Assembly (NCBI GenBank): GCA_964014485.1
Contig: CAXHAT010000208.1
Coordinates: forward strand, 1-13,407
From: an uncultured Deferribacteres bacterium
GTDB lineage: Bacteria; Zhuqueibacterota; Zhuqueibacteria; Zhuqueibacterales; Geothermadaptataceae
DNA length: 13,407 nucleotides
Direction: 5' to 3'
The translations under genes and the position numbers were made by a program. Of this stretch, positions 7,978 to 13,407 are shown piece by piece. The notes below the pieces were generated by a model. That model had not been told where the DNA came from. It made no database searches and worked only from the letters and a program-made list of their open reading frames with translations. Within the stretch, counting starts at the first letter, position 1. The number at the start of each line of letters is the position of its first letter.

Positions 7978-8823
7978 TCAAAGATACGCTCCCTTTAGCG
8001 CCCGATTGTTTCCGCTCACGGGTCTGAATATTTCGTCGTCCGAGACGGGCTCGGGATCTTCATTCCACGTATTGTCGATTGGCTTCAAAGCAACGCTGCG
8101 CGGCTTTTCAAATTCGGCGTCGTCTATCGGCGAAGCTTCTAATTCAGAATCGTCTTCGGCGTTCTTTTGCCGACGATACAGCACGAAAACCGCGCCAAAC
8201 AACACCGTGCTAATTCCCAGAACCAGCGGCCAAAACAGCCCTGAAGAGGTTGCGCCGCTTTCAACAACGCTCTCATTCAAGCCTTCGTCGGGAACCGCGC
8301 CCGGGGTCACAATTGATTCCGCAGGCAAGCCGGTTTCACCGGATTGCGGCGTAAAGGGTTCGCTTTCTTCTAACATCGTTTCAGTTTCGGCGACCGCTGG
8401 AATCTCAGTTTCCGCGCCGCTTGCAGATTGCGCTGGAATTTCGTTGGCGGTTCGCCCGGCAAATGCGGCGGCTTCTTGCTCTGTTTCAAGCGAGGCCATC
8501 GTCAATTGCTCGCTCATAATTTCGTTGACGATAGAAAAACGATTCGTCGCGGAAATCTCCTGAATAGCGGCAAGGCTAGGCAAAACAATGTGCTCGCCGG
8601 GATAAATTCGATTGGCGTCCGGCACACGATTGACAAGCGCCAGAGCGCGCCAATAATCCGCATCGCCGTAGTAAGTTTTAGCCAAATCGCTCAAGTACTC
8701 GCCGTTCTGAATAACGTGAACGCGAGGTTGATCCAAAAACAGGCGGTTGCCTAAAATCGCCCCGGCGCCGCCGATGGTAACGATTGCGAGGGCGGCAAGA
8801 ACGCCGCGATAAAAAGTTCGCAT
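7978..8823 (-). CDS. LysM peptidoglycan-binding membrane protein
   Basis: N-terminal hydrophobic segment, LysM (HVIQNGEYLSDLAKTYYGD...W..LA..N......IYPGEHIVLP), acidic linker, TM helix (FWPLVLGISTVLFGAVFVLY-RRQK) and acidic tail. RBS AAGGAGG upstream of ATG 8823. Confidence 0.88.
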   Translation of the reverse strand: MRTFYRGVLAALAIVTIGGAGAILGNRLFLDQPRVHVIQNGEYLSDLAKTYYGDADYWRALALVNRVPDANRIYPGEHIVLPSLAAIQEISATNRFSIVNEIMSEQLTMASLETEQEAAAFAGRTANEIPAQSASGAETEIPAVAETETMLEESEPFTPQSGETGLPAESIVTPGAVPDEGLNESVVESGATSSGLFWPLVLGISTVLFGAVFVLYRRQKNAEDDSELEASPIDDAEFEKPRSVALKPIDNTWNEDPEPVSDDEIFRPVSGNNRALKGAYL

Positions 8824-9155
8824 TTGACCCTCCTTATGGAAAAATACGTTTCACCGACAGGGTAAATTTACTTGCCCCTGTTCGGCTTTAGTCAAGTTGC
8901 AGCCTGAAAATACAAATGCGGCGCCACAATGAAATCGAGTTCAAAACAGGCGTTTCTTGGCGAAAAAATGCAAAGCGGCGCGTAATATTTACTCGTTTTT
9001 CTCACGGCTGGATACTTTTTACATAGTCGAAATGAACCTCCCGCCAAGTCGAAGTTACGGCTACATGATCATCGAACGGCCCATCTTGTTATGTAACTGA
9101 TGTTGCGCACGCCAATGCATCGCTTATTGCTCAGACTTGAACATGGTTTCATTAG

Positions 9156-9372
9156 CACCGGGCTCAAGCCCAATGTCACTAACTTTTCGTGTTTTTGAAC
9201 TCAAAAATTCTGGGCGACGACTACAGCAAAGACAAGCTAAAGCTTGAACTACAAACGACAGTGCTTTTCTTACGCTCAGAACAGGAGAACGCACGGTGGT
9301 TTGTAGTTCAAACTTCAGTTTGTTTGAGCGTGATCAAAGCAAAAGTTAGTGACATTGGGCTTGAGCCCGGTG
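9156..9372. repeat. Perfect 32-bp inverted repeat bounding an internal insert
   Basis: CACCGGGCTCAAGCCCAATGTCACTAACTTTT (9156-9187) is the exact reverse complement of 9341-9372. Confidence 0.95.
9232..9323. repeat. Inverted pair of GTAG-type REP-like sequences
   Basis: 9232-9256 and 9299-9323 are 22/25 inverted repeats. Both read GTAGTT followed by a 5-bp hairpin (CAAGC-TTTA-GCTTG and CAAAC-TTCA-GTTTG). Confidence 0.8.
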
Positions 9373-9377
9373 ACGTG

Positions 9378-9442
9378 GAAGGCGCTCATTTTCATCCCTT
9401 CCGCCGCACTGGCGCGGCGGAAGGGATGGGACGGGCGTCTTC
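9378..9442 (+). repeat. Long GC-rich stem-loop inside the element
   Basis: Perfect 15-bp stem CATCCCTTCCGCCGC (9393-9407) / GCGGCGGAAGGGATG (9414-9428), extended by GAAGGCGCTC / GGGCGTCTTC with G-U pairs on the plus strand. Confidence 0.85.
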
Positions 9443-9655
9443 AAAAATCTCCGCTCTGAAGAATGGAGCTAATGAGAATCAAAAAGTTGCCTGCGGGCTT
9501 TAATCGCGCGCGCCAAACGGCGGTGCGTAACATCAGTTATGCGATCAAACGCGTTTTTGTAATCGGCGTTTTGAGGCGAAAGCGCTTGATCGTGAACACA
9601 TACATGTAAATCTTTTGCAAAACAGAGCAGCTTTCAAAAAAGAACGATTCTAAAA

Positions 9656-10156
9656 ATGTCCATCCGAATTTATGTAACCGGCGGAACCTTCGACAAAGAG
9701 TACGATGAAATTAACGGGCAACTCTATTTTAAGGATACCCACATCCGTGAAATGCTCGATCTCGGGCGCTGCCGTCTCGACGTCCAGATTCGCACCATTA
9801 TGATGGTCGATAGTCTTGAGATGAGCGACGCAGATCGATCATTGATTATCGAGAATTGCCGTAAATCAAGCGAAAACAAGATAATCATTACTCACGGAAC
9901 GGACACGATGGTCGACACCGCTTGTTTGCTGGCCGAGCATGTCAAAGACAAGACCATCGTGCTGACCGGCGCGATGATTCCCTACGCTTTCGGCAGCTCA
10001 GACGGCTTGTTTAATCTCGGCAGCGCCTTGTCCTTCGTGCAGGTTCTGCCGCCGGGCGTTTATATCGCCATGAACGGCCGCTGTTTCGAGTGGGATAACG
10101 TCAAGAAAAACCGTGACCTCGGAAGATTTGAACAACTAAAAAGGGACGCTCAGTGA
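9656..10156 (+). CDS. Short, single-domain L-asparaginase-family protein
   Basis: 166 aa. Motifs TGGTFDK, DSLEM, ITHGTDTM and VLTGAM.P. The usual C-terminal domain is absent. Confidence 0.9.
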   Translation: MSIRIYVTGGTFDKEYDEINGQLYFKDTHIREMLDLGRCRLDVQIRTIMMVDSLEMSDADRSLIIENCRKSSENKIIITHGTDTMVDTACLLAEHVKDKTIVLTGAMIPYAFGSSDGLFNLGSALSFVQVLPPGVYIAMNGRCFEWDNVKKNRDLGRFEQLKRDAQ

Positions 10157-11146: not shown

Positions 11147-11929
11147 TTACTGGCCTACAATGTCTTCGAGAATTTCGCGGGCGCGCTTGCTTCCGTCTTT
11201 CCCGAGGAGGCGCACGGCTAATTTGCGAACTTCGATGTTAGCATCGTTTTTTGCGGCGTAACCAAGCAGTTCCACCGCTTCATCGCTGCGACGAAATTTG
11301 CGCAATTGCCGCACGGCCTCGTAACGTACAGGCGCACTGTCGTCATTTCGGAGCAGCTTGCGGATCGTTCCCAACGCTTCGTCATCGTTTTCACGCACGG
11401 CTGCGCGCAATGCGGAAACGCGCAATTCTTCTTCGTCGGTCAAGTCGCGAAACGCCCGCGATCCGCCTGAACGTCCCGACCATCTGCTATAGCCGCGCCA
11501 CTCGCCCAAATGCGCAATTTCCGGAACTTCGACATGTATTTCGGGGATTTCAGGGAGCTCTATTTCCAAAGAAGGCATTGGAGGAATGTGCGGTATTTCA
11601 ACATGAATCTCCGGGATTTCGATATGTTCGAGGTGGCGCAGAGAAACTTCCAGCGCTTCCATTGACTCCTCGAAGCCGCTGAACTCGAAGTTAAATTCAG
11701 GGATTTCGATCTCCGGGATCTCTATTTCCGGAATTTCGATGTGGGGAATTTCAATATGCGGGATTTCGATTCTTGGAATCTCAATTGGCGGGATGTGAAC
11801 AAAATGCTCGCCGTTGGAATATACATGTATTTTACGTTTTTTCTTCTTCTCTCTTTTTTCCTGCGCAACGGCAAGAATCGCGACGCCAACCAGAATCGCG
11901 GAAATTCCGATGATTAATCTTCTGTTCAT
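11147..11929 (-). CDS. Exported or membrane-anchored protein with IEIPx pentapeptide repeats and C-terminal HEAT-like repeats, ~260 aa
   Basis: ATG 11929 with GGAGGA at 11936-11941. Signal-like N-terminus (MNRR + hydrophobic + AVA-Q). HEAT-like motifs D....LRVSAL.A, DDSAPVRYEAV..L and DANIEVRKLAV..LG. Confidence 0.82.
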   Translation of the reverse strand: MNRRLIIGISAILVGVAILAVAQEKREKKKKRKIHVYSNGEHFVHIPPIEIPRIEIPHIEIPHIEIPEIEIPEIEIPEFNFEFSGFEESMEALEVSLRHLEHIEIPEIHVEIPHIPPMPSLEIELPEIPEIHVEVPEIAHLGEWRGYSRWSGRSGGSRAFRDLTDEEELRVSALRAAVRENDDEALGTIRKLLRNDDSAPVRYEAVRQLRKFRRSDEAVELLGYAAKNDANIEVRKLAVRLLGKDGSKRAREILEDIVGQ

Positions 11930-12003
11930 GTCCAATCCTCCAGGCAAGCAGTGTTTGGTTTATCTGGTGATATTCTCTTCGACAGCGCCATTTCCCAAAA
12001 GGT

Positions 12004-13197
12004 TTACTCGTAAATGTTATGAATCTTCATTTTGATCATTTTGTTGATCGTCAGATTTTCGAGGCCTTTGTTTTTAAGGTCTTTCGCAAACGAAGGGGTG
12101 ACGCCGTGAATTCTCATCGAAACGAGATCACTCGGCGAAATGTTGCGATAACCTAGATCGGCGAAATCTTCTACAAAACCCGGGGAAACGCCGTGGATTT
12201 TGAACTGGACGAGTTTGTTAGAAGCCAGATCATCGTATCCCGCCTTTTTCATGCCTGCCACAAAATCAGGAGTGACGCCGTGAATTCGGAATTGGACAAG
12301 TTTGCTCGATGATAAATCTTTGAACCCAAGATCGTGCATATCTTTGACGAACTCCGGTGAAACGCCGTGAATTTTGAATTGTACAAGCTTACTCTCGGAA
12401 AGATCATCAAAACCAGCCGTCTTCATTTCCCGCACAAAGTCAGGGGAAACGCCATGAATTCTGAATTGCACAAGCTTGCTCGCGTCCAGACTTGCATACC
12501 CCAATTCTTTCATTTCTCTGGCGAATTCCGTCGAGACGCCGTGTATTTTAAACTGCACGACTTTGCTCAGGGCCAAATCATCAAAACCCATGTCGCTGAG
12601 TTCACGCACGTATTCCGGCGAAACCCCGTGGATGCGCAATTGCACCAGCTTGTTTGAAGGAATGTCTTTGTAACCGGCGGCGTTCATGTCGCGCACAAAA
12701 TCTGCGTCAACGCCGTGGATGCGCATGGCGATCAGTCGGTTCAACGCAAGATCGGAATAGCCGACTTCCGCCATTTCTTTGATGAACGCCCTGCTGACGT
12801 CGTGCATCGTTAGGGTAAATAATTTTTTTGTATCGACGTCTTCATAACCGCTGCGTTGCAATTCTTGTTTAAACGTCTGATTTGGCGTAAAAACGAAATC
12901 GCCGATTCCGCGCCCGTTTTTGAACAAGCCCGTGAATTCGATAACGCCGGCGTCGCGTCTCAGATAAAAAGTTCTTTCCTCCGAAGCTTCCGCAGCTATG
13001 GAGTGATCAATACCCTCGAATTCACGAAATCGTATCGTTTGTCCCCACCTGCCGTCGTTGTTTCGCCAGTCAAGTTCAATACTCATCCATAAGCGGGTGC
13101 GCTTGACTTTCGCAGTCCATTCCCCTTCAAGTGTTTCCTGGGCGACAAGCGGAAGCGCCATCATTAGGACAAACACAGAAACTAATACGCGTTTCAT
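12004..13197 (-). CDS. Secreted hypothetical protein with nine 29-aa tandem repeats
   Basis: 397 aa. Signal peptide MKRVLVSVFVLMMALPLVA-Q, GGAG RBS, a beta-rich N-domain, then repeats with consensus SKLVQF(R/K)IHGVSP.FV..M...G(Y/F).DL.. Confidence 0.9.
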   Translation of the reverse strand: MKRVLVSVFVLMMALPLVAQETLEGEWTAKVKRTRLWMSIELDWRNNDGRWGQTIRFREFEGIDHSIAAEASEERTFYLRRDAGVIEFTGLFKNGRGIGDFVFTPNQTFKQELQRSGYEDVDTKKLFTLTMHDVSRAFIKEMAEVGYSDLALNRLIAMRIHGVDADFVRDMNAAGYKDIPSNKLVQLRIHGVSPEYVRELSDMGFDDLALSKVVQFKIHGVSTEFAREMKELGYASLDASKLVQFRIHGVSPDFVREMKTAGFDDLSESKLVQFKIHGVSPEFVKDMHDLGFKDLSSSKLVQFRIHGVTPDFVAGMKKAGYDDLASNKLVQFKIHGVSPGFVEDFADLGYRNISPSDLVSMRIHGVTPSFAKDLKNKGLENLTINKMIKMKIHNIYE

Positions 13198-13307: not shown

Positions 13308-13321
13308 ATAATTTGTTCTCG

Positions 13322-13407
13322 TAACTGATGTTACGCGCGCCAATGCATCGCTTGTTGCTCAGACTTGAACATGGTTTCATTAGCACCGGGCTTGAGCCCG
13401 GTGACAT
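13322..13407. mobile_element. Second copy (left part) of the 9094-9539 element, truncated by window end
   Basis: 13321-13392 matches 9093-9164 at 69/72 nt. It then continues directly with TGAGCCCGGTGAC, which matches 9362-9374. Confidence 0.85.

Follow-up and report, generated by a model that had tools for sequence, protein, structure and literature searches.

A probable insertion of an IS4-type MITE into a hairpin of another MITE in the genome of an uncultured Deferribacteres bacterium

A gene-less stack of inverted repeats lies between two divergent genes

The window, by which we mean the entire 13,407-nucleotide stretch of DNA analyzed here, lies on contig C208 of the genome designated G000 (other contigs of this genome are likewise given as C numbers). 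At positions 9094 to 9539 it carries a 446-base element that consists of stacked repeats and holds no gene. On one side of the element, read divergently on the minus strand, is a gene without a Pfam match (7978-8823), whose 281-aa product has matches in 25 of 30 relatives and is presumably LysM/BON-like near its N terminus. On the other side is an asparaginase-like ORF (9656-10156), with the element located about 120 bases upstream of it. The sole ORF inside the element (9189-9503, 104 aa) has no Pfam match, in agreement with an earlier, sequence-only reading of this DNA, according to which no transposase is encoded there.

The same reading described four nested layers of inverted repeats, and inspection of the window sequence shows that they are real. 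Counted from the outside in, the layers are a pair at 9094-9110 and 9523-9539 (matching at 16 of 17 positions), 10-base repeats at 9147-9156 and 9468-9477, a perfect 32-bp inverted repeat at 9156-9187 and 9341-9372, and a REP pair at 9232-9256 and 9299-9323 whose GTAG tags point inward; a separate long stem at 9378-9442 is also present. Folded as DNA, the 446 bases reach −120.2 kcal/mol (z = −11.8), a value that none of 100 shuffled sequences equaled. The features delimited in our analysis are listed in Table 1.

A BLAST search of the element against the genome returned 302 matches, in which the modules differ in copy number. The layers also occur independently of one another. There was no match to the element in the plasmid collection. 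Among the 30 relatives that were searched, 2 genomes gave one match each to the outer ends, whose occurrence is scattered or nil. The empty orthologous sites that the sequence-only reading had hoped for did not turn up: at none of 14 loci in relatives was the asparaginase or mutL neighbor present within 1.5 kb, and gene order is not conserved.

Elsewhere in the window there is a short hairpin (13-40), which we take to resemble the dRS3/NTS-type repeats of Neisseria. The minus strand also encodes a 397-aa protein (12004-13197) that contains an 87-nt (29-aa) tandem repeat and for which Pfam gave no convincing match, adjoined by a HEAT-repeat protein (11147-11947) with 15-nt (5-aa) repeats.

Table 1. 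Positions of the parts of the nested element in the window, and of copies of two further shells elsewhere in G000
Feature	Position	Strand	Remarks
Left target flank of outer MITE	9089..9096		TTATGTAA; 6 of 8 positions agree with the right flank; duplication in the family usually 7 bp, sometimes 8; imperfect here
Outer MITE, shell of about 243 bp with IS701_2-clade (NF049921) ends	9097..9536		Interrupted by the inner element; 14 empty versions
Left TIR of outer MITE	9097..9110	+	Family consensus CTGATGTTACGCRC; 351 exact 12-mers in the genome, about 1 expected
Core of outer MITE, orphan hairpin doublet tagged TCTCATTAG	9147..9477		94 doublets by pattern
Left hairpin of layer-2 core	9156-9170 + 9358-9372		Split by the probable insertion
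Central stem of layer-2 core	9378-9442		
Right hairpin of layer-2 core	9449-9468		
Left 10-bp target duplication of inner element	9161..9170		Central bases 9165-9166 are CA
Inner MITE, 187 bp, IS4-subgroup ends CAATGTCACTAACTTTT	9171..9357		Identical copy on C148; ends shared with the parent on C25
GTAG REP doublet, REPIN-like, tags inside; core of inner MITE	9232..9323		63 doublets in the genome
Right 10-bp target duplication of inner element	9358..9367		GGCTTGAGCC, the same as in empty shells
Right TIR of outer MITE	9523..9536	-	Match to the end motif
Right target flank of outer MITE	9537..9544		TTATGCGA; an X2 contig spans 9447-9693 across the junction
Third shell, copies	G000:C4:88553-88836, C39:41684-41844, C79:20076-20345, C110:3315-3581, C193:1054-1337		
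Fourth shell, ends around TACAACGTTAAGT	G000:C7:54280-54453, C49:17976-18150, C86:25556-25729, C93:624-798		Encloses GTAG doublets

The outer shell belongs to a family that duplicates 7 bp of its target

The 351 exact occurrences of the terminal 12-mer CTGATGTTACGC rise to 620 when one mismatch is allowed (about 37 expected). Among 163 pairs of inward-facing ends, 67 are flanked by a perfect 7-bp duplication, compared to 1.4 in shuffled pairs. Perfect duplications of 8 bp, 2 bp and 4 bp occur in 19, 10 (4.5 shuffled) and 3 (6.5 in shuffles) of these pairs, respectively. TAA is frequent directly beside the ends (T 0.76, A 0.78, A 0.81), but the letters vary and TA is not invariant. Given that the family duplicates 7 bp, the element starts at 9097 and the "TA" is part of an AT-rich target. 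The supposed 17-bp terminal repeats with TA flanks thus resolve into a 14-bp TIR and 3 bases of target DNA. The window's own outer flanks do not match at 7 bp and agree at 6 of 8 positions at 8 bp. Removal of the inner unit in silico leaves a 243-bp shell, which the genome matches contiguously and over its full length at 14 places, at 9 of these with 91.8-94.7% identity.

Two further ends of the outer family are found near the contig ends (85-98 and 13324-13407). The stretch 13321-13406 shares 91% identity with the element's left end, and its empty hairpin reads TG.

A scan of genome contigs for the end motif yielded at least 118 stretches. Among the matches listed and further loci, the outer ends enclose transposase frames in at least four pairs from other genomes, which form elements of 1,070-1,155 bp. 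On the model NF049921 (cut-off 250 bits), the proteins at loci L022, L047 and L120 score 280, 339 and 343 bits, and a 280-aa frame at L065 scores 217.5 bits, below the cut-off. Perfect 7-bp duplications flank the elements at L022 and L065, not the one at L047; L120 stops at a contig edge. The apparent long end pair at L020, in another genome, was dropped because it encloses a citrate synthase. Also dropped was an integron attC-like reading of the TAAC...GTTA ends, in view of the 7-bp duplications and the flanked transposases.

In G000, which is assembled to 97% completeness with breaks at repeats, we found no NF049921 transposase (the best match, at 15.1 bits, is an IS4 protein). None of the other 9 PF01609 ORFs examined in this genome has outer-shell ends, and long-range pairing of its unpaired outer ends revealed no transposase. 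The search for genes flanked by the motifs of the element, proposed by the sequence-only reading, succeeded in this genome for the inner ends, which flank an IS4 transposase gene, and for the GTAG doublets, which flank RAYT genes (both described below), and failed for the cognate transposase of the outer shell. The shell shares its ends and duplication length with the NF049921-encoding elements, and its mover is probably an NF049921 enzyme, as judged from those other genomes.

Hairpin doublets form the cores of both elements

The 10-base repeats of layer 2 are the tags of a doublet of about 135 bp, in which two short hairpins surround the long stem. A pattern search of G000 detected 94 such doublets. 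Both outer-MITE ends are close by in 51 of them and one end in 12; no end was detected beside the other 31, although some of these 31 sit in shells with decayed ends. The arm tag is TTAG, not GTAG, in 69 of 69 arms. No candidate gene was found between or beside the layer-2 hairpins in G000, no layer-2 arms were found beside the five Y1 genes checked, and the RAYTs on C64 and C76 carry layer-4 rather than layer-2 doublets. Among 166 other genomes of the phylum, the pattern appears in one, as a single palindrome whose adjoining ORFs, read by eye, do not look mobile. Since GTAG REPs and REPINs have a GTAG tag and a RAYT, and neither was found for layer 2, we do not file it as a REP, though it resembles a REP doublet in shape. 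At three places in G000 (C156:8660-8830, C296:420-590 and C351:1170-1330), layer-2 doublets lie within another repeat whose ends contain TTATCCACA, which we take to be a DnaA-box sequence.

For layer 4, the sequence-only reading had linked the GTAG pair to RAYT enzymes. Other members of its family do flank RAYT genes, one on each side of the gene on C64 and of that on C76, and these four doublets are 79-86% identical to that of the window. On NF047646, the C64 protein scores 86.1 bits (cut-off 80) and the C76 protein 79.4 bits, just under it. The layer is thus composed of inverted GTAG palindromes that are repeated in the genome and flank a RAYT gene, as in REPINs. The 63 GTAG doublets of G000 include 6 between two IS4 ends, 8 beside one IS4 end and 49 beside none; 11 of the 63 adjoin the ends of another (fourth) shell. 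Entry driven by a RAYT is the likely route by which the GTAG doublet came into its shell. Given the doublets beside IS4 ends and the ends of the other shell, DDE-type enzymes can likely copy them too.

The inner unit has IS4-subgroup ends, and its relatives favor hairpins

The inner unit is identical at 187 of 187 positions to G000:C148:2155-2341, a copy that lies in another setting and has its own perfect, different 10-bp duplication. We conclude that the inner unit moved recently as a whole. Seven paired elements of the inner type were found in G000. Six measure 187-197 bp, and the seventh is a 1,528-bp parent with the same ends (C25:31405-32932), which occupies the corresponding hairpin in a sister shell. 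Its transposase scores 145.5 bits on NF033592 (cut-off 115) and has a YREK motif (Y-2-R-3-E-6-K), with an ORF that is split over two frames. The likeness between this parent and the short inner unit stops after about 20 bases. Since it is confined to these terminal bases, the interior of the inner unit is not a deletion product of the parent, an origin that the sequence-only reading had itself raised as counting against its claim.

The 10-bp duplication is perfect at C7, C148 and C127, matches at 9 of 10 positions at C25 and at 8 of 10 at C32, C98 and in the window; at C140 the duplication is perfect at 11 bp. Of 8 reconstructed targets, six are hairpins in which at least 7 of 10 positions pair, a level reached by 0.4% of random sites, and the other two pair poorly (4/10 and 6/10).

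Ends of the inner unit are present in 17 of 19 sister-family genomes, in several of them with only one or two matches. In 32 loci that were selected, not exhaustively, from these genomes, we distinguished 21 paired elements. Fifteen of the 21 have a GTAG-REP tag at most 24 bases away (6 sites are without a tag), and 15 of the 21 have a 10-12-bp duplication with at most 2 mismatches. In related genomes, therefore, the IS4 clade sits mostly in GTAG REP hairpins. Two loci, L227 (1,547 bp, 55% identical to C25) and L228 (1,528 bp), are full length, with 470-aa frames that have the YREK motif. The short IS4-ended forms of the relatives have different, AT-rich hairpin cores. A metagenome search with the C25 protein returned 2 distant loci at 25-27% identity.

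At G000:C98:6240-6520, one IS4-type MITE is inserted in the REP hairpin of a second, which is partly deleted, and at L226 (G014:C22:31-446) a REP-like stretch contains two IS4-type MITEs separated by about 30 bases. C50, C190 and C458 of G000 carry transposase frames of 468 aa with GTGTCCATCCG ends, which are related to one another but not to the element.

The nesting is best explained by insertion into a hairpin

The 32-bp inverted repeat is perfect, as the sequence-only reading had it, yet it is not a layer with boundaries of its own: it consists of a 17-bp TIR of the inner unit (9171-9187), the 10-bp target duplication and 5 bp of the interrupted hairpin. Of the 14 empty shells, 12 have TG at the hairpin center, 2 have TC and none has CA. 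In the nested element, the right duplicate has TG and the left one its reverse complement, CA, which leaves the two duplicates matching at 8 of 10 positions. The 32-bp repeat is thus perfect because two bases of the left duplication are flipped, and the flip was likely made by a later template switch or gene conversion between the arms. The duplications at C7, C127 and C148 are simple direct repeats. The shells of C7 and C333 are nearly identical, as are their inner units, but the inner units face opposite ways, and part of one end is missing from C333. This arrangement fits a rearrangement between such arms and also fits two separate insertions.

We propose that the 187-bp MITE with IS4-subgroup ends, which lies at the hairpin center of the 243-bp MITE with IS701_2-clade ends, was inserted there by an IS4 transposase that acted in trans and aims at REP hairpins, an explanation that we hold with high confidence. 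Shells with IS701_2-clade ends and a doublet core, whose family and 7-bp duplications are observed directly, would have been spread at AT-rich sites by their enzyme, and one copy would have settled in the intergenic gap that it now occupies, with an imperfect duplication. A short IS4-ended unit with a GTAG REP core, of which the identical copy attests movement as a whole, would then have arrived. The duplication and the choice of site are seen in the sequence, and an IS4 transposase would have cut and duplicated the 10-bp palindrome at the center of the shell's first hairpin. Lastly, two bases of the left duplicate would have been rewritten from the right arm, by template switching or gene conversion, to give the perfect 32-bp repeat. 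Because G000 yielded no NF049921 transposase and the only IS4 parent found there is split over two frames, neither mover is demonstrably active.

The layers also occur apart: there are 14 empty shells, 31 of 94 layer-2 doublets were detected without outer ends, and 49 of 63 GTAG doublets lie beside no IS4 end. The idea of one composite structured DNA or RNA system is consequently unsupported, and every layer is also found without the others. The other possibility that the sequence-only reading had offered, serial targeted insertion of parts with different mobilization chemistries, gains support.

The whole nested unit might, in addition, transpose as one piece on its outer ends, which would add to the proposed insertion and not replace it. 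In favor of such movement, C7 and C333 share both a shell subtype (69/73 and 169/177 aligned bases) and an inner unit (179/180), part of the same inner subtype is held by C44, and paired outer ends span up to about 530 bp in the set of 163 pairs. However, the opposite inner orientations at C7 and C333 require an extra inversion or two insertions, BLAST against the genome found no second copy of the window's own composite, and the identical inner unit on C148 lies in a different setting. We regard transposition of the whole unit as possible but doubtful.

Nesting, flipped bases or flank pairing could also be produced by errors of assembly among near-identical repeats. The perfect 32-bp repeat has roughly the length of one k-mer, the outer duplication has mismatches, and among the unpaired outer ends 135 of 294 point toward the edge of a contig. 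No piece bridges either left junction among the 21 matches listed (there are 70 further pieces). Contigs of the runs X1, X2 and X3, which belong to one study, speak for the arrangement on the right side: an X2 contig bridges the right outer junction, and X1 and X3 contigs run from the inner element into the right part of the shell. Two pieces among the matches listed extend over the right inner junction, but they reach just 17 and 25 bases into the inner element, fewer than the 31 that the search tool requires. Moreover, nesting is also seen at C7, C25 and C333, where it involves the same hairpin, and at C127, where it involves the other one, and the sequence differs from locus to locus. We therefore consider an assembly error improbable.

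Even less probable is that the layers evolved together as one functional structured RNA or DNA. Its fold is very stable and it lies between divergent genes, close upstream of the asparaginase-like ORF, but the layers occur separately and in other combinations, and the outer ends are scattered or missing in the relatives. Nothing in Rfam reached the gathering score, the sub-threshold matches being mostly to miRNA hairpin models, and no sigma-70-like promoter was found between 8800 and 9700. Finally, the earlier assignment of the outer ends to an IS630/Tc1-type MITE with TA duplications can be set aside, since IS630/Tc1-mariner elements have an invariant TA duplication and the outer shell, despite its frequent adjoining TAA, has no invariant TA, a duplication length that peaks at 7 bp, and ends that flank NF049921 proteins.

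Other shells in the genome also enclose hairpin doublets

Four different shells in G000 carry hairpin-doublet cores, and two of them also insert into such hairpins. A third shell, with ends GATACTGTTGGCGAA, has a perfect 6-bp duplication in 10 of 13 pairs. Its insertions are mainly at the axis of layer-2 hairpins, and its own cargo includes hairpins, among them layer-2-type doublets. We found no parent for it; there is a loose likeness between its ends and those of presumably IS1182-like elements on C343 and C447. One end of the fourth shell is located just upstream of the RAYT locus on C64. In other genomes, the cores of short outer-ended elements fold with z < −3 in 20 of 35 cases, compared to 2 of 15 parent windows, with the caveat that some of the 35 are related and that extended terminal repeats can inflate the fold score.

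From these findings and the paired IS4-type MITEs at C98, we tentatively suggest that bacterial MITEs arise, in unrelated DDE families, when transposon ends come to enclose REP-type doublets, which would give rise to a self-feeding loop, systematic nesting and RAYT-free spread of REPs. Given that two families also insert into hairpins, each new copy would lay landing sites for the next. As a putative function, the hairpin core may bring the ends of very short elements together. In the full-text literature we found no description of REP-doublet cores in IS-derived MITEs, a weak indication, given that the search met many unrelated "MITE" papers and that most subscription journals lie outside it.

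The stack itself is explained by known processes in a somewhat unusual combination, and REP targeting by IS4 elements is already published. What had been put forward as a candidate for an undescribed system is mostly ordinary stacked mobile DNA, and, as selfish DNA with parts of known kinds, the single locus matters little. It does provide a testable case, in that this REP-targeting IS4 clade has transposases that are intact in relatives, a defined hairpin target of 10-12 bp and a mobile substrate of 187 bp. The case bears on the origin of the interiors of type II MITEs and on the spread of REP doublets. If doublet cores are the rule, DDE transposases would be a second route of REP spread besides RAYTs, and the targeting and carrying of REP hairpins, if true, would explain genomes full of nested repeats.

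Comparison with known systems

The outer clade departs from classical IS701 elements as given in Table 1 of PMC2266710. Those have 4-bp duplications, lengths of 1,400-1,550 bp and ends ---YACT-Y--YR, whereas the outer clade duplicates 7 bp and its parents measure 1,070-1,155 bp with CTGATGTTACGC ends. For this reason we file the shell under the NCBIfam NF049921 "IS701_2" clade only.

For the inner element and its parent, the IS4 subgroup is a close fit. The account of the subgroup in PMC2266710 gives lengths of 1,400-1,650 bp, ends -AATR--------WTW (Table 1 therein), a YREK motif and duplications of 10-13 bp. The inner ends CAATGTCACTAACTTTT conform to this pattern, the duplications fall in that range, and C25 and its relatives supply autonomous-length elements with YREK. 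The window, in contrast, holds a 187-bp non-autonomous unit only, with an unrelated REP core. The passages of PMC2266710 considered here make no mention of MITEs or of REP targeting.

REP targeting has been published for ISRm22, an IS4-family element of Sinorhizobium meliloti (PMC1525189). As described there, ISRm22 resembles the inner unit in that it inserts, with a duplication, at the symmetry axis of a REP palindrome, and imperfect duplications at some copies of REP-targeting ISs are ascribed to recombination. ISRm22 is autonomous and duplicates 6 bp, whereas the mover in the window is a MITE and the duplications are 10-12 bp. Also unlike the described ISRm22 insertions, the target hairpin here is the cargo of another MITE, and the inner MITE carries REP hairpins of its own.

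Layer 4 is similar to the REPINs and GTAG REP dimers described in PMC3116915 and PMC3733652 in its inverted GTAG palindromes, structured spacer and RAYT-flanking members. These descriptions include REPINs inserted into other REPINs and GTAG dimers within longer palindromes. The GTAG doublets of G000 differ from the REPINs described there in that 14 of 63 lie beside IS4 ends and 11 beside the ends of another shell.

Both elements of the window have the TIRs, target duplication and absence of a transposase that characterize type II MITEs. High copy number is a further feature shared with the type II MITEs described in PMC10969869, as is, for the inner IS4 unit compared with C25, a likeness to the parent that is confined to the TIRs; the outer shell was compared with a parent at its ends. 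What sets the elements of the window apart from the type II MITEs described there is that their cores are recognizable hairpin doublets.
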